From an uncultured Bacilli bacterium (GTDB lineage: Bacteria; Bacillota_I; Bacilli_A; RF39; UBA660), in assembly GCA_947626125.1 (NCBI GenBank), contig CANQRA010000001.1, positions 8,881 to 72,880 on the forward strand: a DNA stretch of 64,000 bases. The letters run 5' to 3'. Below the pieces are notes generated by a model that ran no database searches, was not told the origin of the DNA, and saw only the letters and a list, made by a program, of their open reading frames with translations. Made by a program: the position numbers and the translations under genes. The first letter of the stretch is position 1, and every line of letters begins with the position of its first letter. Positions 1 to 55,549 of the stretch are shown here, one piece after another.

Positions 1-184
1 CATTTTTATCTGCTGTGTTCACACAAATCAGACCCCTTTACCTCTATTTTTAATTCTATCTTATTTATGTATTTTTTTCAAGGCTTTTTCAAAACTTTGA
101 GGCAATTTCTAAAATTAATATAGTAAGCAATTAAAATAACAAAAAAAGATATTTATAACTATCAATTATAAATACCTCAATGTT

Positions 185-2329: not shown

Positions 2330-4184
2330 TTTTATTATATTCCTTCTTTAAATAAACCGCTAAAATGGAAATATCCACCGGATTTACGCCACTTATTCTT
2401 GAAGCTTGAGCAATAGTTCTTGGTCTTATTTCACTTAGTTTTTGTCTTGCTTCACTAGCTAAGTTTCTAACCTTTTGATAATCTATATCCTCGGGAATTT
2501 CTTTCTCTTCAATCTTTTCTAATTTTTCAGCTTCTTTATAAGCTTTATCAATATATCCTTTATATTTAAGCAATATTTCTACTTGTTCTAAAACATCAGC
2601 ATCATAAGAAAATTCTTTAAAATTCTTTAGAAAAGCAAAATTAATCTCTGGTCTTTTTAATAATTCTTCATAACTGATAGTCTTTTTAGGGATAAGAATA
2701 TCATATTTATTAAAAATCTTTTTAACTTCTTCATTGATAACTAACTTTTCATCTTTTAACTCTTGTTGTAACTTCTTTATATTTTCTTTTTTTTGCAATA
2801 ATCTTTCATGTTGTTCATCACTTATTAAACCTATTTGATAACCATACTCTCTTAATCTTAAATCAGCATTATCATGACGAAGTAACAATCTAAATTCCGC
2901 CCTACTTGTAAGCATCCGATACGGATCTTTTACTCCCTTAGTTACTAAATCATCGATTAAAACACCAATATAAGCTTCATTTCTTTTTAATATTAAACTA
3001 TTTTTACCTTGTATTTTTAAAGATGCATTAATCCCAGCGATTAATCCTTGACTAGCAGCTTCTTCATATCCACTTGTTCCATTAATTTGCCCCGCGGTAA
3101 ATAAATTTTCTAATACTTTATTTTCTAAAGTTGGTTTTATTTGCAAAGCATCAATGGCATCATACTCAATGGCATAAGCATATTTAGATATCACCGCATT
3201 TTCTAATCCTACTAAAGAATGCACCATCTCTTCTTGAACATTAATAGGCATACTAGTAGAAAATCCTTGTAAGTACCATTCATCATAATAAATACTCTCG
3301 GGTTCTAAGAATAATTGATGTCTTGGTTTATCACTAAAACGGACAACTTTATCTTCAATGGAAGGACAATATCTAGGACCGACACCTGTCACATATCCTC
3401 CATACATAGATGATTCTTTTAAATGTTTCCGAATTATTTCATGTGTTAAATCATTAGTATATAATAAATAACATTTTTGTTGTTTATTTATCTCATATTG
3501 AGGTTTAATATCATGACTAAAAGTAAGATATGTATCATCGCCCAATTCTTCTTTTAAAACACTAAAATTAATCGATTCTTTTTTTATTCTGGGTGGTGTT
3601 CCCGTTTTAAGTCTTAGAATATTTAAACCATATTTTTTTAAATTATCACTAAGTAAGTTACTTCTTCCTTCGCCATGTGGTCCTGATGGGATGCTTTCAC
3701 TTCCTCTTAAAACATTAGCCTTTAAATAAGTCCCTGTGGTAAGAATAACTTCTTTACTATATATCTTTTCTTTATTATCTAGGACTACCCCTTCTACTTT
3801 AGAATCATCCACAATTAAATCTTCCACCAAGGCCTCTTTTATTTCTAAATTAGAATTACTTTCTAAATAAGAAAGCATAACTTTAGGATATACTCTTTTA
3901 TCAGCTTGGCATCTTAAACTTCTAACCGCGGGTCCTTTACTATTATTAAGCATTTTAATTTGAAAGTGACTTTTATCAGCCACAATGCCCATTAAACCGC
4001 CTAAAGCATCTATTTCTCTTACGATAACTCCTTTAGCTGTACCCCCAATGGAAGGATTACATGGCATATCGGCAATATTATTTTTATTCATTGTTAAAAG
4101 AAGGGTTTTCATTCCCATTTTAGCACAAGCATAACTAGCTTCACAACCAGCATGCCCTCCCCCAACAACAATAACATCATACAT
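2322..4184 (-). CDS. mnmG: tRNA uridine 5-carboxymethylaminomethyl modification enzyme MnmG (GidA)
   Basis: N-terminal FAD motif 'DVIVVGGGHAGCEA'. Length is 620 aa. It sits between mnmE and rsmG. Confidence 0.95.
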   Translation of the reverse strand: MYDVIVVGGGHAGCEASYACAKMGMKTLLLTMNKNNIADMPCNPSIGGTAKGVIVREIDALGGLMGIVADKSHFQIKMLNNSKGPAVRSLRCQADKRVYPKVMLSYLESNSNLEIKEALVEDLIVDDSKVEGVVLDNKEKIYSKEVILTTGTYLKANVLRGSESIPSGPHGEGRSNLLSDNLKKYGLNILRLKTGTPPRIKKESINFSVLKEELGDDTYLTFSHDIKPQYEINKQQKCYLLYTNDLTHEIIRKHLKESSMYGGYVTGVGPRYCPSIEDKVVRFSDKPRHQLFLEPESIYYDEWYLQGFSTSMPINVQEEMVHSLVGLENAVISKYAYAIEYDAIDALQIKPTLENKVLENLFTAGQINGTSGYEEAASQGLIAGINASLKIQGKNSLILKRNEAYIGVLIDDLVTKGVKDPYRMLTSRAEFRLLLRHDNADLRLREYGYQIGLISDEQHERLLQKKENIKKLQQELKDEKLVINEEVKKIFNKYDILIPKKTISYEELLKRPEINFAFLKNFKEFSYDADVLEQVEILLKYKGYIDKAYKEAEKLEKIEEKEIPEDIDYQKVRNLASEARQKLSEIRPRTIAQASRISGVNPVDISILAVYLKKEYNKNE

Positions 4185-7793: not shown

Positions 7794-9119
7794 CTACCGA
7801 CTTTTCTTATTTTGTCCTAAAGATTCCTTATTTTCTCTATATTTTTGAATATCTCTATAATATTGATTAATAAGTAAGCTTCTAACATAACCTTTATTTT
7901 GGTAAATGCCCAAATTCTTTTTATCTTGCGGTACACACTTATCTAACATATCTATCCCACAAAATTCTAGGCGCCCGTTACATAAACCTAGAACAGTTGA
8001 ACCGAAACGGTAAAGACAAACAAAATCGTCATTATTCAAGTTACTAATAGCAAAAAATTCTTGAGCAAGGTACATAAACTTATATAAAGGTATCTTTACC
8101 GGAAGTTTTTCTTCTCTTACAATCTCATCAGAAACAATTTCTCCTAACCATATTTCGTATTCTTCTTCCCCAGCAATAATATATTTTACGGGCTTTCCTT
8201 CATATATATAAATATCCATGTATTGGTCAGTTATTAAATTATTTGTGACTACATCTAAAATTTTAGCCGCTAAATCATAATCAGTAAAATCTATTTTATC
8301 TAATAACCGCAGGCTTTCATAGCTGGTACCGTATCCACTACCAGTCAAAAACATTTTCACTTTATCCTTAATTAAACTAAAAATCATACTTATTTGCTTT
8401 TTAAATTTTTCATTATCGGCACTTGCCATCGCAGCATGGTATCTTTCGGTTAAATTATTTGATAATGTACTTATTTCTAAATTATAATTTTTAGCTTCCC
8501 ATTTATGATTAATATCTTCAAATAATTCTTGATAATAAATTGGAAATAAAGGCTTTAAAAGAACTTCTTGAAGTTGTCTTAATTGAATACCATTGTAATC
8601 AAGAGCTTGGGCTTTTGCCATTAATCCTTTATAAAGTGGGTAATTAATTGCCGCGATTTTAAACCTAGCATCTACTGCTTTTTTAAACTGACGAAGATAA
8701 AAAGAATCCATGCTTTCTCTATTGGGATATCTACAATTAGCCTTTATACTTTCCTTAAGTGTTGTATCTTTTAATTTTTCAATATCATCTTTTATAACAT
8801 CATAATAAGGATTATGTTTATATGACTCAACTACTCTGTTAATATCAGCTAAAAAGGTATTATTCCCTCTAAGTCTTTTTAAACTTTCATAAAATTCATT
8901 AATTCCCATATTAGCATTAATTTTAAAAGAGCCATCTGTTCCTATAAAATATTTATCAAAATAATAATTTTTAAAAGTTTTGTACCATAACCTAATTAAA
9001 GCAAAAAATTCATCAAGTATATTTTTTACTTCTGCCTTAGTATTAGCATCATCCACTTTGGTAGGAAAATTAACAATCTCTCCAACAAACACTTTTGCTA
9101 AAGAAGAAAATTCTTTCAA
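7794..9119 (-). CDS. hypothetical protein (441 aa), probably the frameshifted C-terminal portion of the upstream J-domain gene
   Basis: The ORF begins at a TTG with no Shine-Dalgarno sequence and overlaps the 9070..9411 ORF by 50 nt in the +1 frame. Its N-terminus ('VGEIVNFP...EVKNILDEFFALIRLWYKTFKN') aligns with the middle domain of the 9426..10085 paralog ('VGEYLIPS...EIDVIFLEFKNKIASWYEQFKN'). Confidence 0.5.
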   Translation of the reverse strand: MKEFSSLAKVFVGEIVNFPTKVDDANTKAEVKNILDEFFALIRLWYKTFKNYYFDKYFIGTDGSFKINANMGINEFYESLKRLRGNNTFLADINRVVESYKHNPYYDVIKDDIEKLKDTTLKESIKANCRYPNRESMDSFYLRQFKKAVDARFKIAAINYPLYKGLMAKAQALDYNGIQLRQLQEVLLKPLFPIYYQELFEDINHKWEAKNYNLEISTLSNNLTERYHAAMASADNEKFKKQISMIFSLIKDKVKMFLTGSGYGTSYESLRLLDKIDFTDYDLAAKILDVVTNNLITDQYMDIYIYEGKPVKYIIAGEEEYEIWLGEIVSDEIVREEKLPVKIPLYKFMYLAQEFFAISNLNNDDFVCLYRFGSTVLGLCNGRLEFCGIDMLDKCVPQDKKNLGIYQNKGYVRSLLINQYYRDIQKYRENKESLGQNKKSR

Positions 9120-9411
9120 AAATGATTTTTTCCTTTACTACGATTTTATAAGCTTTTAATTCTTCATCGTCAGTACTAGCATTATAAAAATTGTTATCTT
9201 TCTTTCCTTCTTTTAAAGCATTACTTAAAATTTCATATGCCAAATTTATTTTCTTTAATTTTTCGGTTGCTTCCCTTTTTTCTACTTCTGTTTTATTAAT
9301 TAAAGCATCTGGATGATATTTTTTAGCTAAAGCATAATATCTCTTTCGTAATTCACCCTCAGTATAATTATTATTTAGTCCTAATATTTTTAAGGCATCA
9401 CCATGATTCAT
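9070..9411 (-). CDS. J-domain (DnaJ N-terminal domain) protein, truncated; likely the 5' part of a frameshifted gene
   Basis: J-domain with an HPD motif: 'KRYYALAKKYHPDALINKTEVEKREATEKLKKINLAYEILS'. It ends within the A6/T5 homopolymer region at 9118..9131. Confidence 0.6.
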   Translation of the reverse strand: MNHGDALKILGLNNNYTEGELRKRYYALAKKYHPDALINKTEVEKREATEKLKKINLAYEILSNALKEGKKDNNFYNASTDDEELKAYKIVVKEKIIFERIFFFSKSVCWRDC

Positions 9412-9425
9412 TTCTAACCCCTTTG

Positions 9426-10085
9426 TTATAAACTTTTTAATTTTTCAATGCATCGTCTTCTTATTGTATAATTGCAATATGCATGATATCTACTTTTTAA
9501 CTTTGTATAAAATTTTCCAAATGGCTCATCAGCACTAATTTCAAAATTCGTATTTTCCCCCATTGGATGATTGGTAAGGAAAGAATTTTTAAACTGTTCA
9601 TACCAACTTGCTATTTTATTTTTAAATTCTAGAAATATAACATCTATTTCATCAATACTAGTCGCGGTGTTAATTTGGCCAAGATAGAACTTAACTGTAT
9701 CATTATATACATCAATAACTGATTCTAAACCAGGAAAATCATTGAAAATCGCTGCTTCACTTGGTATTAAGTATTCCCCCACAATACTTATTATTTTTTT
9801 CATGTACATTAATAATTCAACATCATTAGCATTGCTATAAGCACCATTGGTGCTGGATGAATTATTACTATTTGTTTTTCCCTCTTTTAAAGCTTTGCTT
9901 AAAACCTCATATGCCAAATTTATTTCCTTTAATTTTTCGCTTGCTTCCTTTTTTTCGGCTTCCGTTTTATTAATTAATGCATCAGGATGATATTGCCTTG
10001 CTAAAGCATAATATTTCTTTCGTAAAATATCTTCCGTGTAATCACTAAATAACCCCATTATTTTTAGAGCTTTATAAAAATTCAT
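9426..10085 (-). CDS. J-domain protein (219 aa): J-domain + low-complexity linker + helical C-terminal domain
   Basis: 'KKYYALARQYHPDALINKTEAEKKEASEKLKEINLAYEVLS' with HPD. It is a paralog of 9070..9411 with about 70% identity across the J-domain. It contains no DnaJ Zn-finger or C-terminal domain. Confidence 0.7.
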   Translation of the reverse strand: MNFYKALKIMGLFSDYTEDILRKKYYALARQYHPDALINKTEAEKKEASEKLKEINLAYEVLSKALKEGKTNSNNSSSTNGAYSNANDVELLMYMKKIISIVGEYLIPSEAAIFNDFPGLESVIDVYNDTVKFYLGQINTATSIDEIDVIFLEFKNKIASWYEQFKNSFLTNHPMGENTNFEISADEPFGKFYTKLKSRYHAYCNYTIRRRCIEKLKSL

Positions 10086-10231
10086 AGTAATCCCCCTTTT
10101 TTATTGTCTGCTATTATATAGCAATATCATCATTTCGTCAAGTAGAGCAAATTAAGGCATAAACTAAAGGTCTTGTTATTAACTATTTTTTGTGTTATAG
10201 TAGTTTTCGCTTTAAAAAAGAGGGGATAATA

Positions 10232-11545
10232 ATGGCTCATTCAATAGCAAATAATAATGATTTAATAATGCTTAATGAATTTATAGATAGCAACTTATCG
10301 GATACCATTGATTATGATTTAGCATTAGAAGAGTTATTAAAACTAAGTCTATTTATTGAAGAAAATTTATTAGCAATTAACCGCTCAACTATATATGATA
10401 TCGTCATGGATAATAGAATTTTAAATAGCATCCTAGAAACTATTGTGCAAAATATTAAAGACTATCAAGACTTAGATACTGTTAGTGCAGATGTTAATGA
10501 TAATGAAATAGCCTTTCTTTTATTAAGAGCTTATTTAATGCAAAATAACTTGATTGCCAAGGAAATGGAAGATTACATAGACCATACAGAAAGTGACTAC
10601 TACCAAACTAATAAAGAATCTAAGTTAGAAAGTATTGAATTAAGTGGAAAAACAGTGCGAAAACTAAGAAAAATGTTATTAACCGATAAAGAAAAAACAA
10701 CCGAATTAATTATTAGATATTATGCTAAAGTTATTGAAAAAAAACTTCCATCTCATGGTAATTATAACGAACTTTATCAAGAGGGATGCCTTGCTATCAT
10801 GGAAGCAATTAATCACTTTTTAAAATCAAATAAATTATTAGCAACGTATATATATGTTGCAATATCAACCTATTTTAGAGACTATAATAACAGGATGAGT
10901 AAGGCATTTGAACCCTTTGATGACATAGATGAAAATGATGTGCCTAATATATTAACGAGCTTAAAAGATGAGCCTTTTGAAGATGTTATTATTAATGAAC
11001 CACCTTTTAAATTAGAGGAATTAGTGCAACAAATTAATATTCCGGATTATAATCGGGAACTTTTGATTTATTATTTTAACAGTGATATAGAAGGTAGTAA
11101 ATTGTATGAACCATATAATACAAGTAGACAAAATTTTTATGCAAGAATAAATCATAGTCTTAGACATTTTCTAAGTGATAAAACCATCATTGAATCAATT
11201 TCTTATTTAGATGACCCCGATAAAGCTCTACAAACTATTAAAGAAAATATTAATGTTGTTGATTTAACCGTAAGTTGGCTCCATCATGATTTTGCTAATA
11301 TTGTAGCACAAGTACCTTTAACAAATTTGGAAAGAGAAATTTTATGTTATTACTATGAGTTAAATGGCTATCAAAGAAAAAATGATATGGAAATGGCTCA
11401 AATGTATGGAATAAATTATTTGAAATTAGCTAGGACAAGAATTAACGCCATGTATAAGATAATAAGTCAAAGGGTCATTCCTTATATGGATTTAGTCCCC
11501 GAATTAGATAAAAAAATAAAAGAATATGGCAAAAGTTATCGCTAA
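10232..11545 (+). CDS. divergent sigma-70 family-like protein (437 aa) with an N-terminal extension and a long insertion between regions 2 and 4
   Basis: Region-2-like segment 'ELYQEGCLAIMEAINHFLKSNKLLATYIYVAISTYFRDY' (compare DLIQEGNIGLMKAVEKF...FSTYATWWIRQAI). Region-4/HTH-like segment 'LTNLEREILCYYYELNGYQRKNDMEMAQMYGINYLKLARTRINAMYKI'. Start is at ATG 10232, preceded by Shine-Dalgarno AGAGGGGA and an extended -10 TGTTATAGT. Confidence 0.45.
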   Translation: MAHSIANNNDLIMLNEFIDSNLSDTIDYDLALEELLKLSLFIEENLLAINRSTIYDIVMDNRILNSILETIVQNIKDYQDLDTVSADVNDNEIAFLLLRAYLMQNNLIAKEMEDYIDHTESDYYQTNKESKLESIELSGKTVRKLRKMLLTDKEKTTELIIRYYAKVIEKKLPSHGNYNELYQEGCLAIMEAINHFLKSNKLLATYIYVAISTYFRDYNNRMSKAFEPFDDIDENDVPNILTSLKDEPFEDVIINEPPFKLEELVQQINIPDYNRELLIYYFNSDIEGSKLYEPYNTSRQNFYARINHSLRHFLSDKTIIESISYLDDPDKALQTIKENINVVDLTVSWLHHDFANIVAQVPLTNLEREILCYYYELNGYQRKNDMEMAQMYGINYLKLARTRINAMYKIISQRVIPYMDLVPELDKKIKEYGKSYR

Positions 11546-12005: not shown

Positions 12006-13361
12006 ATGAAAACACATGAATTATTTAAACAATTTTTGCAAGAAATAGAGAACGAAGTTAGTCCAGCAACTTATACAGCCTGGTTTCATGACTTAGAACT
12101 CATTTCCATGGATGACAAAGAAATAACTATTAAAGTACCTCTTCCTGTTCATAAACAAATACTTAAAACAACTTATTTAGATTTAATTGATAATACCATG
12201 TTTTCTTTAACGGGTATTAACTATGATTTTAAATTCTATACTGAAGATGAATATAACGATAAAATAAATATTGAAGCTGTTAAAGATGAGAATAATGATA
12301 GTCAAATAATCTCTTGGAATACTAATTTAAAACCTAATTTGAATTTTGATAACTATGTCGTTGGTGAATCCAATAGACTAGCCTTTATATCGGCGATGAA
12401 TGTGGCTCAATCCCCTGGAACTATTCGCAATCCCTTATTTATATATGGTAAAAGTGGAACGGGGAAAACCCATTTAATGAATGCGATAGGTAATTATATC
12501 AAAGACCATTCCAAAAAACGAGTTTTATATACCACAAGTGGAGACTTCCGTGATGAATATGTCGATATGTCCAAATTAGATAAAGGAAAAGATGCCATTG
12601 AATATGCGAATAATTTTAAAAATAAATATCGCAATGTTGATGTATTAATTATTGATGATATTCAGTTATTGGTAGATTCTCCGATGACCCAACAAGAATT
12701 CTTCCATACTTTTGAAGCCCTCCATCAAGCTAATAAACAAATTATTATTTCTAGTGACCGTTCCCCAGATGATTTAAAAAAGATTGAGGAAAGACTAAGG
12801 AGTCGTTTTAAATGGGGATTACCTGTTGATATCCATCCACCTGATTTTGAACTAAGATGTGAGATTATTAAGCAGAAAATTCAAAATACTAGTATTAAAG
12901 ACCGCGTTAGTAAAGATGTTATTGAATATATTGCCAATGGTTGTCCGAGTGATATAAGACATATTGAAGGCACCATTAATCGTTTACTTGTTTATACTGC
13001 TTTATATACACCAGAATATATTGATTTAGATTTTGCGATTGAAGCTTGTAAAGACTCGATTGATAACAATATATATCAAGAAAATACGATTTCGCATATT
13101 CAAAAAGTGGTCGCCGATTTCTATAAAATAACAATCGAAGATTTAAAAAGCAAAAAAAGAAGTAATAATATTGCGTGGCCAAGACACATTGCCATGTACT
13201 TATGCCGGGTTGAAACCGAAGAAAACTTAGTAAAGATTGGTTTTGAATTTGGCGGAAGAGACCATTCAACCGTTGTTGCTAGTTGTGAAAAAATTAAAGA
13301 AGAGTTACAACATAATGAAACGCTTAATAATACTATCAAAGAAATAAAATCAAAGTTATAA
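12006..13361 (+). CDS. dnaA: chromosomal replication initiator protein DnaA
   Basis: AAA+ Walker A 'GKSGTGKTHL', box VII and C-terminal DNA-binding domain 'IAMYLCRVET...GGRDHSTV'. Length 451 aa. Confidence 0.97.
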   Translation: MKTHELFKQFLQEIENEVSPATYTAWFHDLELISMDDKEITIKVPLPVHKQILKTTYLDLIDNTMFSLTGINYDFKFYTEDEYNDKINIEAVKDENNDSQIISWNTNLKPNLNFDNYVVGESNRLAFISAMNVAQSPGTIRNPLFIYGKSGTGKTHLMNAIGNYIKDHSKKRVLYTTSGDFRDEYVDMSKLDKGKDAIEYANNFKNKYRNVDVLIIDDIQLLVDSPMTQQEFFHTFEALHQANKQIIISSDRSPDDLKKIEERLRSRFKWGLPVDIHPPDFELRCEIIKQKIQNTSIKDRVSKDVIEYIANGCPSDIRHIEGTINRLLVYTALYTPEYIDLDFAIEACKDSIDNNIYQENTISHIQKVVADFYKITIEDLKSKKRSNNIAWPRHIAMYLCRVETEENLVKIGFEFGGRDHSTVVASCEKIKEELQHNETLNNTIKEIKSKL

Positions 13362-18320: not shown

Positions 18321-20837
18321 ATGAATCACGATAAAGATAAATTAGAAGAAAATAATATAGTCAAAGAAATTAAAGATTCTTTTATTGATTATTCTGTTAG
18401 TGTTATTGTTTCCAGAGCGGTTCCCGATTTACGAGATGGCTTAAAACCCGTTCATCGTCGGATATTATGGTCAATGTATGAAACAGGTTATACTCCTGAT
18501 AAACCCCATAGAAAATCCGCGAAAATAGTTGGTGAAGTTATGGGTAAATATCACCCACATGGTGACTCTAGTATCTATGAAGCTATGGTTAGAATGGCGC
18601 AAGATTTTAGTTATCGTTATCCTCTAGTTGATGGCCATGGTAACTTTGGTAATATCGCGGGAGCGGGTGCTGCAGCATATCGTTATACTGAAGCCCGATT
18701 AGATAAACTATCCCTTGAATTACTAAGAGATATTAATAAGGAAACAGTTAATTTTACGCCTAACTTTGATGAATCAGAAAAAGAACCAGAAGTCCTTCCT
18801 TCAAGATTTCCTAATATTCTAGTTAATGGTACTATGGGTATTGCTGTTGGTATGGCTACGAATATTCCTCCCCATAATTTAGGCGAAGTAATTGATGGCT
18901 GTGTGGCTTATATTGATAATCCTGAAATAGATACAAATGGATTAATGCAATATATTAAAGGGCCTGATTTTCCTACTGGTGGTATTATCTTAGGTAACAG
19001 TGGAATAAAAAAAGCTTATGAAACAGGTCGCGGTACAATTACCATAAGAAGTAAAGCAACCATTGAAGAAAAAGACGGTAAACATCACATTATCATAGAA
19101 GAAGTCCCTTATGGTGTTAATGTATCTGATTTAAAAAGCAAAGTTGCTGAACTTGTTCATAATAAAATTATTGATGGTATTGCTGATTATCACACAGATT
19201 TAAAAAATGGGGTTAAAATAACCATCACTTTAAAGAAAGATGCTAATCCGCAAGTTGTTTTAAATAATTTATATAAGCATACGCAATTTCAAATTAGTTA
19301 TGGCATTATTTTCTTAATGATAGATAATAAAGTGCCAAGAACATTGGGCTTAAAAGACATAATTGCTAAATATATTAATTTCCAAGAGGAAGTTATTATT
19401 CGTCGAACCCAATTTGAATTAGATAAAGCCGAAAAAAGAGTCCATATTTTAGAAGGTTACAAGATTGCTCTTGATAATTTGGATGATTTTATTAAGATAA
19501 TTCGAGATAGTGAAACTGATGTTATTGCTAAAGAAACTTTAATTGCCAAATATGGTTTAACAGATGTTCAAGCTGATGCTATTCTAGAGTTAAAGTTACG
19601 TCGTTTAACCGGCTTAGAAAGAGCCAAAATTGAAGAAGAATTAAAAGAATTATTAGCGAGAATTGAAGAATTAAAAGCTATTTTAGCTTCCCGTGAAAAA
19701 ATTCTAGAAATAATTAAAAATGAATTATTAGAAATTAAAGAAAAATACGCTGATGAACGTCGGACTAAAATTGATATGACAGCGATTGAATACATTGAAG
19801 ATGAGTCATTAATACCTGAGGAAGATGTTATGGTTGTTTTAACTAATAAAGGTTACATAAAAAGAACAACCAACGATACTTTCAAAGTCCAAAATCGTGG
19901 TGGTGTTGGAATTAAAGGATTAACTACTAACGATGAAGATTATGTTGAACATTTACTTAACTTATCAACTCACGATTACATAATGTTCTTTAGTAATAAA
20001 GGCAAAGTATATCGGTTAAAAGGGTATGAAATACCGGAATTTAGTAGACAATCCAAAGGACTTCCAATTGTAAACTTGTTACAAATTGAGAAGGAAGAAA
20101 CTATTAATTCAATTCTTAAAGTATCTGCTGAAGACGATAATGAATATTTAATGTTTGCCACAAAGAAAGGTATTGTTAAGAAGACAAAAATTAGCGAATT
20201 TGAAAATATTCGGGCAACAGGAAAAATATGCATTAATCTAGCCGATAATGATGAATTATTAGATGTTAAAAAAACAAACGGAAATAATATTGTTTTACTT
20301 GGTAGTGATAAAGGTAAAATGGTTAAATTCAACGAAAATGAGATAAGACCAATGGGTCGTACCGCAACTGGGGTTAAAGGCATTAATTTAGATGGTGGTA
20401 AATGTATTTGCTTTGAAATTGTTAATGAAGACTCCACTATTCTACTCGTTACCGAAAAGGGATACGGAAAAAGAACAAATGTTTGTGAATTTAGACAAAC
20501 AAAAAGAGGTAGTAAGGGTGTTTTAGCCTTAAATATAACCGAAAAGAATGGTGTTTTAGTTGCAGCTAAAATAGTCGATGTTGATAAAGACGTTATAATT
20601 ATGACTAATGCTGGAATTACTATTAAATTACCTGTTGAACAAATATCTATTTTAGGTCGTGTAACTCAAGGTTTGAGATTAATTTCATTACGAGATAATC
20701 AAACTGTTGCCACTATTAGTATTGTTAATAAAGCCGAAGACGAAAGTAAAAACGAGGAAAATGGAGATAACATAGTACCTGTTAATAGTGACGAAGAAAA
20801 AAACATTGTTGAAAACCAAGAAGATACTACAAATTAG
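18321..20837 (+). CDS. gyrA: DNA gyrase subunit A
   Basis: Active-site region 'AAAMRYTEARL-like' (here '[11 protein letters not shown]') and the QRDR motif '[17 protein letters not shown]'. The C-terminal GyrA beta-pinwheel repeats are present. Length 838 aa. Confidence 0.97.
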
Positions 20838-21817
20838 TGTCTTTTTTGTTGAAAAATTATTTCCCGGGAAATAATTGGTTTACATAATATTTTTATTTTT
20901 TGCTAAAAGAATAATTTAAAATTTAGACAGTGTCAAAATTCTTTCTCTAATGTTTCACGTGAAACATTAGAGAAAAATTGCTACATAATTTTATATTCTT
21001 TTCTTTTAAAAGTTAAACAATTTATGTATTATGAATTTGGTAAACGTCATTATATTAATATATTTAAATATATCCCTCGAAATAATTGGACTACATAATA
21101 TATAATTTATATCTCTGATAAGTTAACTTTAAAAATATCAATAAATGTTTCATACATTACTGATAAGCCATAATAAAGTAAGTTTAATTTTTTGATATAT
21201 TTAACAAATTTTTACCCGTCGCTTAAACTTATTCGTACTCCATTAATTAGTAACGCTTTATGTTTCACGTGAAACATTAGAGAAAAGCAAATCATTTTTT
21301 AAAATTAACTTTTACAATTTTTTATACGATGTATTCACACATAAACAAAAGCATATTATTAGTATATTATCAATTGTTTAATCCAATAATATGTAATATT
21401 TCCCGGGAAATAATTGGTTTACATAATATTTTATTTGTACATATAATATGTATGTGCTAAACTTTTAGCAAGGCGCATCTCTCCTATATCGAGCTTTTAA
21501 TATAGGTTTGAACGCTCCATATTACAGCACGCGAGATGTTATGTTACTATTTATATTTAAATGTTACTTAAAGCAATGTTTCACGTGAAACATTGCTGGT
21601 GTAAAACATTATTCAAGCATTTAGCATTACTCTTAATTAATTTTAATTATACATAATTATTTATTTAATTCTATGATTTATATTGTATGTTTCACGTGAA
21701 ACTATAAAAATTTTGACACTGTCAAAATTATTTCCCGGGAAATAATTGGTTTACATAATATTTTTGTATTTAAAAAAGTATGTTGAAAAAGTAACTTTTA
21801 TATGTTATTATCTTATT
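20838..21817. repeat. ORF-free ~1-kb region densely populated with three families of repeated palindromic motifs
   Basis: Motif R1 (~38 bp) is 'ATTATTTCCCGGGAAATAATTGGTTTACATAATATTTT' at 20866..20903, 21397..21434 and 21727..21765, with a degenerate copy at 21072..21102. Motif R2 is the palindrome 'TGTTTCACGTGAAACAT' at about 20950, 21260 (both extended to a 26-bp identical repeat), 21575 and 21687. Motif R3 is 'TTTTGACACTGTCAAAATT' or 'GACAGTGTCAAAATT' at 20927 and 21708. The ends of the region show a mirrored order: R1-R3-R2 on the left and R2-R3-R1 on the right. Confidence 0.7.
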
Positions 21818-21895
21818 GCACAACAAATATATCGTAACCTGGTCAGAGTTGGAAAACAGCAGCCACATCGGTCCCTATTTGTGTGTGCTTTTTTT
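21818..21895 (+). ncRNA. ffs: candidate small (4.5S-type) signal recognition particle RNA
   Basis: 'CCUGGUCAGAGUUGGAAAACAGCAGCCACAUCGG' resembles SRP domain IV (GGUCAG..., a GGAA tetraloop closing a GUU/AAC helix, and AGCAGCCA). A terminal stem GCACAACAAATA/TATTTGTGTGTGC closes it, followed by a U-run. Its position just upstream of tadA-dnaX matches the B. subtilis scr neighbourhood. Confidence 0.5.
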
Positions 21896-21909
21896 GAGGA
21901 ACTAAATTT

Positions 21910-22317
21910 ATGAACAAATATATGGAACAAGCTTTTAAAGAAGCTCTTAAAGCGTATAGAAAAAAGGAAGTACCCGTTGGTGCTGTAATTGTTTATAATG
22001 GTAAGATAATTGCTAAATCCCATAATAATAGGCAAAACCGGCACAATGTTTTAGGTCATGCGGAAATAATGGCCGTTTTAAAAGCAGAAAAAAAGATTCG
22101 CGATTGGCGATTAGATGAATGTGAAATGTTTGTTACATTAGAACCATGTACTTTGTGTACACATGTAATTAAAGAATGTCGGTTAAAAAAAGTATATTTT
22201 TTGTTGAAAAGTCCCCAAGAAACAACAATAAATGGTTTTACACAAACAAATGATTGCGAGGAGCTTCAAAACAAATACAAATGTTTGCTGCAAAAATTTT
22301 TTCAAAAATTAAGATAA
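21910..22317 (+). CDS. tadA: tRNA-specific adenosine deaminase
   Basis: CDA-fold zinc motifs 'HAEIMAV' and 'PCTLC'. Length 135 aa. Confidence 0.85.
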   Translation: MNKYMEQAFKEALKAYRKKEVPVGAVIVYNGKIIAKSHNNRQNRHNVLGHAEIMAVLKAEKKIRDWRLDECEMFVTLEPCTLCTHVIKECRLKKVYFLLKSPQETTINGFTQTNDCEELQNKYKCLLQKFFQKLR

Positions 22318-52976: not shown

Positions 52977-53759
52977 ATGACCACAATTTCTTTTTTTAAA
53001 AAGGTTGAAGGTTTAATCGATAATTATGATTATAATATAAATTTAGCTCAAACTGATGAAGAAAAATTTAAAGAAAGTTTAAAAGTTAATAAAGATGATA
53101 CCCTTTATTCCGAAAAAGAAATAAAAGTCTTTCCATATAGTTTAATTATAAAATATGTTAAACAATTTGGTATTCAAGAAACTTACAAAAAAATTGAAAC
53201 ATTATATTATTTATTACCGGATAATAATTATAATAATATCTTATTAAAAACAGTGATATATCGTCTTCTTTATATGATGGAAAAATTATATATGAGTTTT
53301 ATTTTGCAAAAATTATTTAGTCTTATCAATAAAGCTGCTTATCCTTGGAATGAGGATGATTTAAGACAAGTTACGATTTTTTTGCAAAAGGAAAGTGGGA
53401 TAGATTATTTACTAGGTATTGAAGGAGATAGAATTACTAATCAATTATCATTTTTTGCTGATATTAAAACCGATGATGAGAAAGAATTAGGTCAAGATGA
53501 TACTATAATGCAAAGTAGGATGGTTAATGCTTACCTTGTTATGATTGATTATATAAATGCTCTGGGTATTGATGAATATAGGAGAAGAAGAGATTATATA
53601 ATAAATTTAATTAGGGATAAAAAAATAGAAATAGATGTTCTTTATCAAAAAAAGCTTTTTAGTGCATTTTATAATATTAATAAAGAGATGCGAGAATATA
53701 ATCAAAGGTTAAAGAGAATTATTAAAAAGGACCACAAACAATTAATTATATTACCATAA
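52977..53759 (+). CDS. hypothetical protein (260 aa) immediately upstream of parA
   Basis: Intact ORF with no recognisable motifs. Confidence 0.5.
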   Translation: MTTISFFKKVEGLIDNYDYNINLAQTDEEKFKESLKVNKDDTLYSEKEIKVFPYSLIIKYVKQFGIQETYKKIETLYYLLPDNNYNNILLKTVIYRLLYMMEKLYMSFILQKLFSLINKAAYPWNEDDLRQVTIFLQKESGIDYLLGIEGDRITNQLSFFADIKTDDEKELGQDDTIMQSRMVNAYLVMIDYINALGIDEYRRRRDYIINLIRDKKIEIDVLYQKKLFSAFYNINKEMREYNQRLKRIIKKDHKQLIILP

Positions 53760-53862: not shown

Positions 53863-54645
53863 ATGGCAAAGGTTATTTCATTAGTTAATCAAAAAGGGGG
53901 AGTTGGTAAGACTACAACAAGTATTAATTTAGCGGCGGCTTTAGGAAAAGAAAATAAAAAAGTATTGTTAATAGATTTAGACCCACAAAGTAATGCTACA
54001 ACTGGGTTAGGATTAAACTCCAATGATTTTGAACACGATATATATGATGTAATTACTGGTAGATGTGCTATTGAAGAAGCAATTATAAAAACAGAATTTG
54101 AAAATTTAGCGGTTATTCCTGCGACTTTAAATTTAGCGGGGATTGATGTTGAGTTTGTTAAAAGAATGTTGGAAGATAACACTTTTCATCAAAATGAACA
54201 ATTGAAGAATGCCATTAATAAAATTAGAAATGCTTTTGATTTTATTGTTATTGATTGTCAACCATCATTAGGACTTGGCACGATGAATGCCTTAGTATCT
54301 AGTGATTCCGTTATTATACCGGTTCAATGTGAATTTTATGCCCTAGATGGAATAACCCAATTATTAAATTCAATTATTATGGTTCAATCTGGGATGAATC
54401 CCTCCCTTTCTATTGAGGGTGTCCTTCTTACTATGTTAGATGGAAGAACCAACATTGGTTTAGAAGTAATTGAAGAAATTCGTAAATATTTTAAAGATAA
54501 AGTATTTAATACAATTATACCTCGTCTTGTTAGATTGGTGGAAGCTCCATCTCATGGAAAACCAATTAATGAATACGACCCAACTAGTAGAGCAACGGAA
54601 GCTTATCATAATTTAGCTGTCGAAGTAATAGAAAGAAATAGTTAG
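53863..54645 (+). CDS. parA: chromosome partitioning ATPase ParA/Soj
   Basis: Deviant Walker A 'NQKGGVGKTTT'. Confidence 0.95.
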   Translation: MAKVISLVNQKGGVGKTTTSINLAAALGKENKKVLLIDLDPQSNATTGLGLNSNDFEHDIYDVITGRCAIEEAIIKTEFENLAVIPATLNLAGIDVEFVKRMLEDNTFHQNEQLKNAINKIRNAFDFIVIDCQPSLGLGTMNALVSSDSVIIPVQCEFYALDGITQLLNSIIMVQSGMNPSLSIEGVLLTMLDGRTNIGLEVIEEIRKYFKDKVFNTIIPRLVRLVEAPSHGKPINEYDPTSRATEAYHNLAVEVIERNS

Positions 54646-54661: not shown

Positions 54662-55549
54662 ATGGAACCTAAGAAAAAAGCATTAGGAAGAGGATTAGAG
54701 CAATTATTTGCTAACAATGTTATTGATTTTGATAACTATGAAAAAGAAATTGTTAACGAAAATAAAAATGATATTGTTGAAATAGCTCTTGATGAAATAA
54801 GAAGTAATCCTCATCAACCTCGTAAAACTTTTAATGAAGATAGTTTAAATGAATTAGCTCAATCCATTAAAGAATTCGGTATTGTTGAACCTATTATTGT
54901 TAAAAAAAGTATTAAAGGTTATGAATTAGTGGCCGGTGAACGTCGTTGTAAAGCCGCTAAAATTGCGGGCCTTACGAAAATACCAGCCGTAATAAAAGAT
55001 TTTACGGATGAAGAAATGATGGAAATAGCGTTAATTGAAAATATTCAAAGAGAAGATTTGAATGCCATTGATGAAGCTAAAAGTGTTCTAAATATTATTA
55101 ATTTAAAAGGATTTACCCAAGAAGAATTTGCTACTAAATTTGGTAAGAGTAGAAGCTATATTACGAATTTATTAGGTCTTTTAAATTTACCAGAAAATAT
55201 TCAAGATATGGTTGTTAGTAAAACATTAACACCATCTCATGCACGGGTTTTAAGTAAATTAGATGATAAAGACCAAATTGATACTTTAGCTAGAAGAGTT
55301 ATCAAAGAAAATCTTAATGTTCGGGAATTAGAAAAGCTAGTTACTGAAAAAGATATTGTTAAAAGAATGCCCATTTTGAAAAGCGATAATGTTGACCGTA
55401 ATAAATATCGGATATATGAAAGAGTTATCAGTGATAAAGTTGGTAATCCAGTTCATATTAGTAAAAATAAATTAGAAATTGTTTTTGATTCAACGAAAGA
55501 TTTAGAAAGAATAATGGAAATATTAAATATTAATATTAGTGAGGAATAG
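54662..55549 (+). CDS. parB: chromosome partitioning protein ParB/Spo0J
   Basis: ParB box 'GERRCKAAKIAG' and an HTH domain. Confidence 0.93.
   Translation: MEPKKKALGRGLEQLFANNVIDFDNYEKEIVNENKNDIVEIALDEIRSNPHQPRKTFNEDSLNELAQSIKEFGIVEPIIVKKSIKGYELVAGERRCKAAKIAGLTKIPAVIKDFTDEEMMEIALIENIQREDLNAIDEAKSVLNIINLKGFTQEEFATKFGKSRSYITNLLGLLNLPENIQDMVVSKTLTPSHARVLSKLDDKDQIDTLARRVIKENLNVRELEKLVTEKDIVKRMPILKSDNVDRNKYRIYERVISDKVGNPVHISKNKLEIVFDSTKDLERIMEILNINISEE

Follow-up and report, generated by a model that had tools for sequence, protein, structure and literature searches.

The subject of this report is the intergenic spacer between gyrA and ffs, the gene for the small signal recognition particle (SRP) RNA, in an uncultured Bacilli bacterium of the RF39 group. 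The DNA analysed is a 64,000-nucleotide stretch of contig CANQRA010000001.1 (positions 8,881 to 72,880), referred to here as the window, and coordinates count from its first letter. The first-pass annotation had described 20838-21817, between gyrA and ffs/tadA, as a region without an open reading frame (ORF) of at least 60 amino acids (aa), built from three families of repeated palindromes designated R1, R2 and R3. The coordinates and an ORF scan agree with this. The largest spacer ORFs encode 43 aa (21329-21460) and 55 aa (21746-21913, overlapping ffs). In the features listed below, copies of R2 and R1 are named after the two sites whose consensus they match, parS and the Noc-binding site (NBS).

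18321-20837, plus strand: gyrA, the left border of the spacer
20858-20873, unstranded: NBS-1, exact consensus TATTTCCCGGGAAATA, the core of R1 copy 1, 21 nt past the gyrA stop
20877-20890, plus strand: tail of NBS-1, GGTTTACATAATAT
20922-20938, unstranded: R3 copy 1, TTTAGACAGTGTCAAAA, an imperfect palindrome with one arm mismatch
20951-20966, unstranded: parS-1, exact consensus TGTTTCACGTGAAACA, within a 34-nt perfect palindrome (20942-20975)
21069-21084, unstranded: decayed NBS, TATATCCCTCGAAATA, 3 mismatches, inside a degenerate R1 copy (21064-21111)
21261-21276, unstranded: parS-2, exact consensus
21397-21412, unstranded: NBS-2, exact consensus, the core of R1 copy 2, with its tail at 21416-21429
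21577-21592, unstranded: parS-3, exact consensus, within a 26-nt palindrome (21572-21597)
21688-21703, unstranded: parS-4, TGTTTCACGTGAAACT, 1 mismatch to the consensus
21711-21727, unstranded: R3 copy 2, TTTTGACACTGTCAAAA
21729-21744, unstranded: NBS-3, exact consensus, the core of R1 copy 3, with its tail at 21748-21761, about 40 nt upstream of the ffs promoter
21783-21811, plus strand: ffs promoter-like site, TTGAAA-17-TATTAT with a TG extension
21809-21904, plus strand: ffs, small SRP RNA, the right border of the spacer (Rfam RF00169, 52.7 bits against a gathering score of 40)
21910-22317: tadA, directly beyond ffs and followed by dnaX, ybaB and recR

R2 occurs as three exact 18-mers at 20950, 21260 and 21576, and as a near-copy at 21687 with 2 mismatches in the 18-mer (1 in the 16-bp core). 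None of 100 shuffles reached four matches. The core is the exact 16-bp consensus of parS (PMC7383237), and the palindrome that defines this site, TGTTTCAC-GTGAAACA, is present in three exact copies and one with 1 mismatch. R1 occurs as three identical blocks of about 36 nt, TATTTCCCGGGAAATAATTGGTTTACATAATATTTT, at 20858, 21397 and 21729, all in one orientation, and none of 100 shuffles gave any match. Here too four or more copies had been claimed; three are intact and a fourth, at 71% identity, is decayed. The R1 core is the exact 16-bp consensus NBS (PMC7383237), followed by a tail of 14 nt, and the NBS palindrome TATTTCCC-GGGAAATA is found in the three exact copies and the decayed one.

The relationship between the two motifs is also telling. 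Jalal et al. 2020 (PMC7383237) give the two consensus sequences and state that parS and NBS differ at two positions per half-site. The 16-bp R1 and R2 sites likewise have two differences per half-site, and their 12-mer cores (TTTCCCGGGAAA in R1 and TTTCACGTGAAA in R2) have one. As far as the letters go, the difference between the R1 and R2 cores is exactly the one known between parS and NBS. The edges of the spacer read R1-R3-R2 on the left and R2-R3-R1 on the right, as first described. R3 itself had been over-counted, with two copies found in place of four or more, each lying between an outer NBS and the neighbouring parS.

Another clue is position. The sign of the GC skew flips at about 10-12 kb, which places oriC there, and the start of dnaA is at 12006, so that the motif cluster lies about 9 kb from dnaA. 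The cluster is therefore origin-proximal, where parS sites are expected.

No copy of R1, R2 or R3 was found in the other 63 kb of the 64-kb window. What of other genomes? One genome per species was scanned with the R1 19-mer TTTCCCGGGAAATAATTGG, which gave 59 loci. About 40 of these belong to uncultured gut Bacilli, 'Tenericutes' or CAG metagenome-assembled genomes (MAGs), and nearly all matches in the MAG loci fall within the gyrA-(ffs)-tadA spacer or just past tadA. The others are single matches in unrelated, often GC-rich genomes, in about the number expected by chance. Consensus sites were then mapped, with up to 2 mismatches, in 38 related spacers from genomes whose GyrA is 53-92% identical to that of the window. 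Each holds 3-9 parS and 1-9 NBS. In all, the gyrA-ffs/tadA spacer carries both types of site in about 38 species.

The order of the sites varies within this theme. The five closest species (GyrA 90-92% identical) have an NBS, three to five parS and a second NBS. In species less closely related, one or two NBS stand at the ffs end of a parS array; others interleave both types. In the window the order is N P P N P P N (N for NBS, P for parS), and the NBS-parS-NBS order of the five closest relatives explains the 'mirrored' layout that had first drawn attention to the region. With up to 1 mismatch allowed, the 38 spacers (35.8 kb in all) contain 78 NBS and 143 parS, or about two NBS per kb. The flanks outside the spacers contain 17 NBS in 236 kb, most of them in the adjoining tadA-dnaX spacer. 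Neighbourhoods of noc have 15 NBS and no parS in 617 kb, and neighbourhoods of parAB have neither site in 83 kb. Origin-proximal DNA other than the spacers (about 0.9 Mb) holds about one NBS per 50 kb and almost no parS. Even close relatives show no conservation of the DNA between the motifs, which argues that selection acts on the sites and their position and not on the spacer as a unit. A BLAST search for a conserved small RNA or pseudogene between the motifs, run against the spacers of the 38 relatives, detected no conserved sequence other than the motifs and ffs.

Two departures from the common pattern were seen among the relatives. In one genome (L043/L181, CANQYK010000005.1) gyrA is followed by nine NBS in a tandem array with a period of about 75-83 nt (157 nt for a double unit) and by no parS; this genome keeps the order rsmG-noc(500 aa)-parA-parB. 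Two Erysipelotrichales-like MAGs carry an exact NBS, flanked by the same sequence, within the coding region of dnaX (L008, 848-866; L051, 689-707), and the gyrA-tadA spacers of both have parS only.

Could the motifs simply be repetitive extragenic palindromic (REP) elements, miniature mobile elements or the remains of a mobile element? The first-pass annotation had offered both a REP-like family and a decayed mobile element as options. Like REPs and the mosaic elements built from them (BIMEs), the motifs are repeated non-coding palindromes, short and with a GC core; the stretch is AT-rich, and one R1 copy and one parS half-site have decayed. However, REPs are dispersed, whereas these motifs are missing from the rest of the window and the R1 19-mer marks essentially one locus per related genome, in the same syntenic spacer in about 38 of them. 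Their position is conserved over species and they equal known protein-binding consensus sequences. Terminal inverted repeats, target duplications and a transposase are all missing, and it is the motifs and their position that are conserved and not the other DNA. A repetitive or mobile origin is hardly credible on this evidence. The earlier statement that the region is neither a CRISPR array nor an insertion sequence stands; it reads as a composite centromere.

A second alternative is that the main role of the palindromes is to form hairpins in RNA or DNA (as terminators, insulators or cruciforms) and that their likeness to parS and NBS is secondary. The hairpin at parS-1 is 17 bp long with a folding energy of -19.1 kcal/mol (z-score -7.4). 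In related spacers (loci L006-L058) parS often sits inside a longer palindrome whose extra arms vary from site to site, and the extension beyond the 20-mer averages 1.85 pairs compared with 0.54 at random positions. Moreover, the closest relatives have the R1 tail on both sides of the gyrA-proximal NBS, which creates a perfect palindrome of about 50 nt. However, a scan of 20838-21817 with an intrinsic-terminator consensus found no terminator-like site, and the R1 hairpins are no more stable than those of shuffles (z-scores of -0.5 to +0.5). Nor would terminators keep an identical 16-bp core over species with such divergent GyrA proteins, and the cores equal two published protein-binding consensus sequences. 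That hairpin formation is their main role is very improbable. R1 in particular was considered as the gyrA terminator and rejected, given its shuffle-like hairpin energy and the lack of a U-tract alongside.

Other searches for RNA features were equally unrewarding. An Rfam search of the region, at the gathering threshold and with E-values up to 10, gave ffs as the only real match. Weak matches to microRNA and small nucleolar RNA families were merely the parS-1 hairpin. No tRNA or transfer-messenger RNA was found in the spacer. Among promoter-like sequences of the spacer the top one is TTTACA-18-TATAAT at 21418-21447 (11 of 12 matches), with the -35 element formed by the tail of R1 copy 2. It is followed, within 21418-21600, by a segment of about 150 nt with higher GC content, which ends in the parS-3 hairpin. 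This segment folds better than shuffles (z-score -2.76; 1 of 200) and has no conserved counterpart in relatives; it may represent a small transcript peculiar to this species, or nothing.

The R1 tail GGTTKACATAATAT deserves separate mention. In related spacers TTKACATAAT follows nearly every NBS half-site that ends in ATTGG, so the tail is a genuine conserved module. One idea was that R1 is a sigma-70 promoter. It was rejected since there is no steady -35/-10 geometry over the copies; copy 2 alone gives the spacing mentioned above. Another idea arose from a likeness of the tail (ATATTATGTAAAC) to the XerD arm of the B. subtilis dif site. This was dropped as well: no conserved second arm lies 6-8 bp away, the tail is origin-proximal and there are several copies.

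If the spacer holds true parS sites the genome should also encode ParA and a cognate ParB with parS-type residues, and it does so here.

53863-54645, plus strand: parA (soj), partition ATPase
54662-55549, plus strand: parB (spo0J), the presumed reader of R2/parS, with specificity residues R-L-N-S

A six-frame motif scan of the window found one ParB-family gene, this parB, directly after parA. The best match of its product in the PDB is Spo0J of B. subtilis (6sdk, 191.9 bits), and Noc structures score about 150 bits (152). The specificity positions 173, 179, 184 and 201 (Caulobacter numbering) are RTAG in ParB and QKKR in Noc (PMC7383237). In the window ParB the corresponding residues, read off an alignment with 6sdk, are R-L-N-S. 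The arginine at 173 is invariant among parS binders and serine at 201 is tolerated (PMC7383237), and judged by these residues the protein is compatible with parS binding. The usual residue at 201 is glycine. All 120 of the closest ParB homologues (P0121-P0240) have serine there, and 71 of the 120 have lysine at 184. The ParB proteins of two outgroup genomes keep the glycine (RMNG).

The slot between rplQ and parA is occupied by a different gene in each species. In the window it is 52977-53759 (260 aa), in one relative (L190) a gene of 173 aa, and in another (L189) two genes of 221 and 342 aa on the other strand. None of these slot genes has a Pfam or NCBIfam match.

The second protein required is a reader of NBS. 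A noc gene in one of its usual places was not found inside the window. However, the window begins with the start of a gene that runs off its left edge.

1-22, minus strand: Noc-like ParB paralogue, the presumed reader of R1/NBS; GTG start and first 7 codons (VNTADKN)

A contig of the same species (L191), found by an exact look-up with RsmG, extends about 220 nt past this edge. Its positions 3031-3273 continue the gene to 81 aa, including IIPNRFQPR and GERRYKA, and the product (VNTADKNANMQVLNVPIEDIIPNRFQPR...GERRYKAAK) is a ParB N-terminal domain. The fragment averages 64% identity to members of the Noc-like family, compared with 48% to members of the ParB family. A longer contig with the full protein was sought by exact look-ups with RsmG and orf234, which gave contigs of at most 3.3 kb, and a homologue search with the 81-aa fragment gave short fragments only. 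Among 68 complete metagenomic relatives, which share 67-85% identity with the fragment, 65 have the Noc-type residues Q-K-(N/S/A/T)-R, the closest being QKNR. In a second set of 120 homologues, collected with the Noc-like gene of locus L003, all have Q-K-x-R except one with K-K-S-R. Judged from these residues, the species has one parS-type reader and, with high probability, one NBS-type reader.

The genomic setting of the gene is that of noc, close to rsmG (gidB) and oriC. The order in the window is rsmG, a LigT-like gene, orf234 (234 aa) and the noc-like gene. Relatives have mnmG-rsmG-noc-like, and outgroups (L181, L003) have rsmG-noc-parA-parB. The latter is the ancestral order, which was split in the sub-clade of the window. 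Here the noc-like gene stays near rsmG, and parA-parB lie 52 kb away behind rplQ and the ribosomal protein cluster.

One difference from Noc lies at the N-terminus. The Noc N-terminal amphipathic helix (aa 1-15) plus spacer is highly conserved and is needed for membrane binding and function (PMC4331003, Adams et al.). In the Noc structure 7ol9, 37 aa precede the motif IIPNRFQPR. There are 19 (VNTADKNANMQVLNVPIED) in the window species and 6-16 in relatives. The reading frame is closed by a stop 5 codons before the start codon, which rules out a longer N-terminus. The 6-19 residues therefore leave no room for the Noc helix plus spacer. Four members of the family score 268-297 bits with NCBIfam TIGR04285 (nucleoid_noc), under its cut-off of 315, and their alignments cover profile positions 1 to 195-233 of 255. 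At the other end of the protein is a low-complexity, disordered extension of 150-300 aa with a small conserved C-terminal domain.

Within the C-terminal linker a short motif, [FN]KFF, recurs (e.g., SNFKFFSP, NNKFFTP). It is present in 101 of 120 Noc-like homologues (P0001-P0120) and in 24 of 68 Noc-like ORFs in L197-L276, and in none of 120 ParB homologues. It resembles the SRFFG in the N-terminal helix of B. subtilis Noc. Perhaps it is a membrane- or partner-binding motif that has been relocated.

Taken together, these observations make it very likely that the gyrA-ffs spacer is an origin-proximal, centromere-like region that serves as a platform for two paralogous ParB-family proteins, as read from the sites and the genes. 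The first-pass annotation had listed a nucleoid-organising or origin-proximal element with sites for dimeric proteins among its options. This was essentially right, although R2 was not recognised as parS or R1 as NBS. Its alternative of an operator hub for several regulators applies loosely at best, in that two ParB-family proteins are predicted to act here.

How might such a region work? The proposed sequence of events is as follows. The four parS sites would act as nucleation points for ParB, which would then form closed clamps and spread along the flanking DNA, and ParA and SMC would act on this partition complex. The Noc-like paralogue would nucleate on the three intact NBS, which bracket and split the parS array. 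The outcome would be two nucleoprotein complexes on a single ORF-free stretch of about 1 kb. Sliding ParB clamps are known to be stopped by protein roadblocks. In the closest species the outermost sites are NBS, which together with such roadblocking suggests a boundary or cooperative role. The idea that the NBS complexes delimit the ParB complex at the gyrA and ffs borders, or cooperate with it, in place of classical membrane-linked nucleoid occlusion, is plausible and is held at somewhat less than even confidence. A border role is preferred because the Noc-like protein lacks the Noc membrane helix. An alternative is tethering through its long C-terminal tail. As for the biochemistry, characterised relatives of ParB and of the Noc-like protein bind CTP (cytidine triphosphate), close and spread (PMC7053999, PMC8429893). 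By analogy, both window proteins would bind DNA, form CTP-dependent clamps and spread.

Several observations do not sit easily with the centromere-like platform. One is that the conserved 14-nt tail of R1 is not accounted for by a 16-bp Noc site. Another is R3, which parS and NBS do not explain; it was not found in the related spacers or other fetched loci, apart from a contig of the same species (L001). In addition, the helix-turn-helix of the window species' Noc-like protein lies outside the available DNA, and the 19-mer used for the scan includes flanking sequence, which biases it towards R1-type sites. Lastly, the serine in place of glycine at position 201 hints that ParB might also touch NBS.

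The last point can be taken further. What if a single ParB (R-L-N-S here, R-L-K-S in many relatives) reads both types of site, and the Noc-like paralogue plays no part at this locus? In a published mutational scan, variants with dual specificity mostly have threonine or serine at 201, and lysine or arginine at 179 and 184 is permissive for NBS (PMC7383237). The uniform serine at 201 and frequent lysine at 184 of the closest homologues, and the glycine retained at 201 by two outgroup genomes, would be consistent with this. However, the species does have a Noc-like gene, and its relatives carry the Noc-type Q-K-x-R. The window ParB lacks lysine or arginine at both 179 and 184, and the RLNS and RLKS variants were not found in the supplementary text of PMC7383237. 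Dual reading by ParB is therefore improbable, and two separate readers are preferred.

It is useful to compare the region with the systems from which its parts are known. It shares with the chromosomal ParABS system of B. subtilis and most bacteria the 16-bp consensus, the origin-proximal location, a parA-parB pair and the invariant arginine of ParB. B. subtilis has about ten parS spread over its origin-proximal region. In contrast, the four sites of the window are packed into a single ORF-free spacer, where they span about 750 bp and are interleaved with NBS; relatives have up to nine. A further difference is that parAB lie 33 kb from the sites, behind a ribosomal protein cluster.

The Noc-NBS system of B. 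subtilis and S. aureus provides the other half of the comparison. The 16-bp NBS is the same, and the partner in this family is a ParB paralogue, encoded next to rsmG, with the Noc-type residues Q173, K179 and R201. B. subtilis has about 70 NBS. Yet in the window the three or four NBS all lie inside a parS array, and the other 63 kb have none, so the scattering typical of NBS is not seen. In the model species the sites are spread across the half to two-thirds of the chromosome nearest the origin (PMC5540599, PMC7383237) and are widely distributed except near the terminus, ter (PMC7383237); 41 NBS peaks were found in S. aureus by chromatin immunoprecipitation (PMC5540599). The protein differs too, as it has no N-terminal amphipathic helix, has the long C-terminal extension and falls below the NCBIfam cut-off. 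In other words, these are known elements in a new arrangement, with NBS packed into a parS array and a Noc-type protein without the membrane helix. A literature search on Noc or parS with RF39 found no paper describing such an arrangement within the searchable library.

Two sets of side observations concern the motifs in viral DNA and the neighbourhood of oriC. A scan of viral contigs (L061-L140) found the 18-mer ATGTTTCACGTGAAACAT in at least 120 contigs, often with 2-3 copies each, which fits parS-carrying phage-plasmids or misbinned plasmids. The NBS 16-mer was found in 27 viral contigs and an R3-type palindrome in 54, mostly as a single copy. These 54 matches gave no clue to the identity of R3. 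Next to oriC, at 9070-10085 and 7794-9119 on the minus strand and at 10190-11545 on the plus strand, lie a pair of paralogous ORFs of the J-domain type, an ORF of 441 aa and one of 451 aa. Both J-domain-like ORFs open with M..ALKI.GL...YTE..LRK.YYALA..YHPD. The oriC-side ORFs (the J-domain-like pair and those of 441 and 451 aa) have no family match except a weak one to sigma-factor region 2, and they sit in the slot usually taken by the rpmH-rnpA neighbourhood.

What does this mean for the biology of the clade? The parS/ParB and NBS/Noc pairs are the textbook example of how, after duplication, a DNA-binding protein gained a new site and took on a new job. The two sets of sites are distributed very differently in the two species studied to date, and Noc there pulls DNA to the membrane. 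A whole clade that keeps both types of site in one spacer, and whose Noc-type protein lacks the membrane helix, is a natural experiment on how such a protein functions without binding the membrane. The clade could also be used to ask whether a complex of one ParB-family member can assist another or set limits to it, and in what order the properties of Noc evolved. For annotation, the long gyrA-ffs spacer of these MAGs would be a functional centromere and not junk or an assembly oddity. A more specific idea, tentative and on balance doubtful, is that these uncultured gut Bacilli, whose genomes are small, run a two-paralogue centromere, in which a helix-less Noc-type paralogue with a disordered [FN]KFF tail occupies NBS that fence in parS, and either sets the borders of ParB and SMC loading or tethers the origin to some other partner. 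The two-paralogue arrangement could be a snapshot of the origin of Noc, with DNA specificity arising first and membrane binding and dispersal of the sites later, or it could be a secondary re-purposing of Noc.

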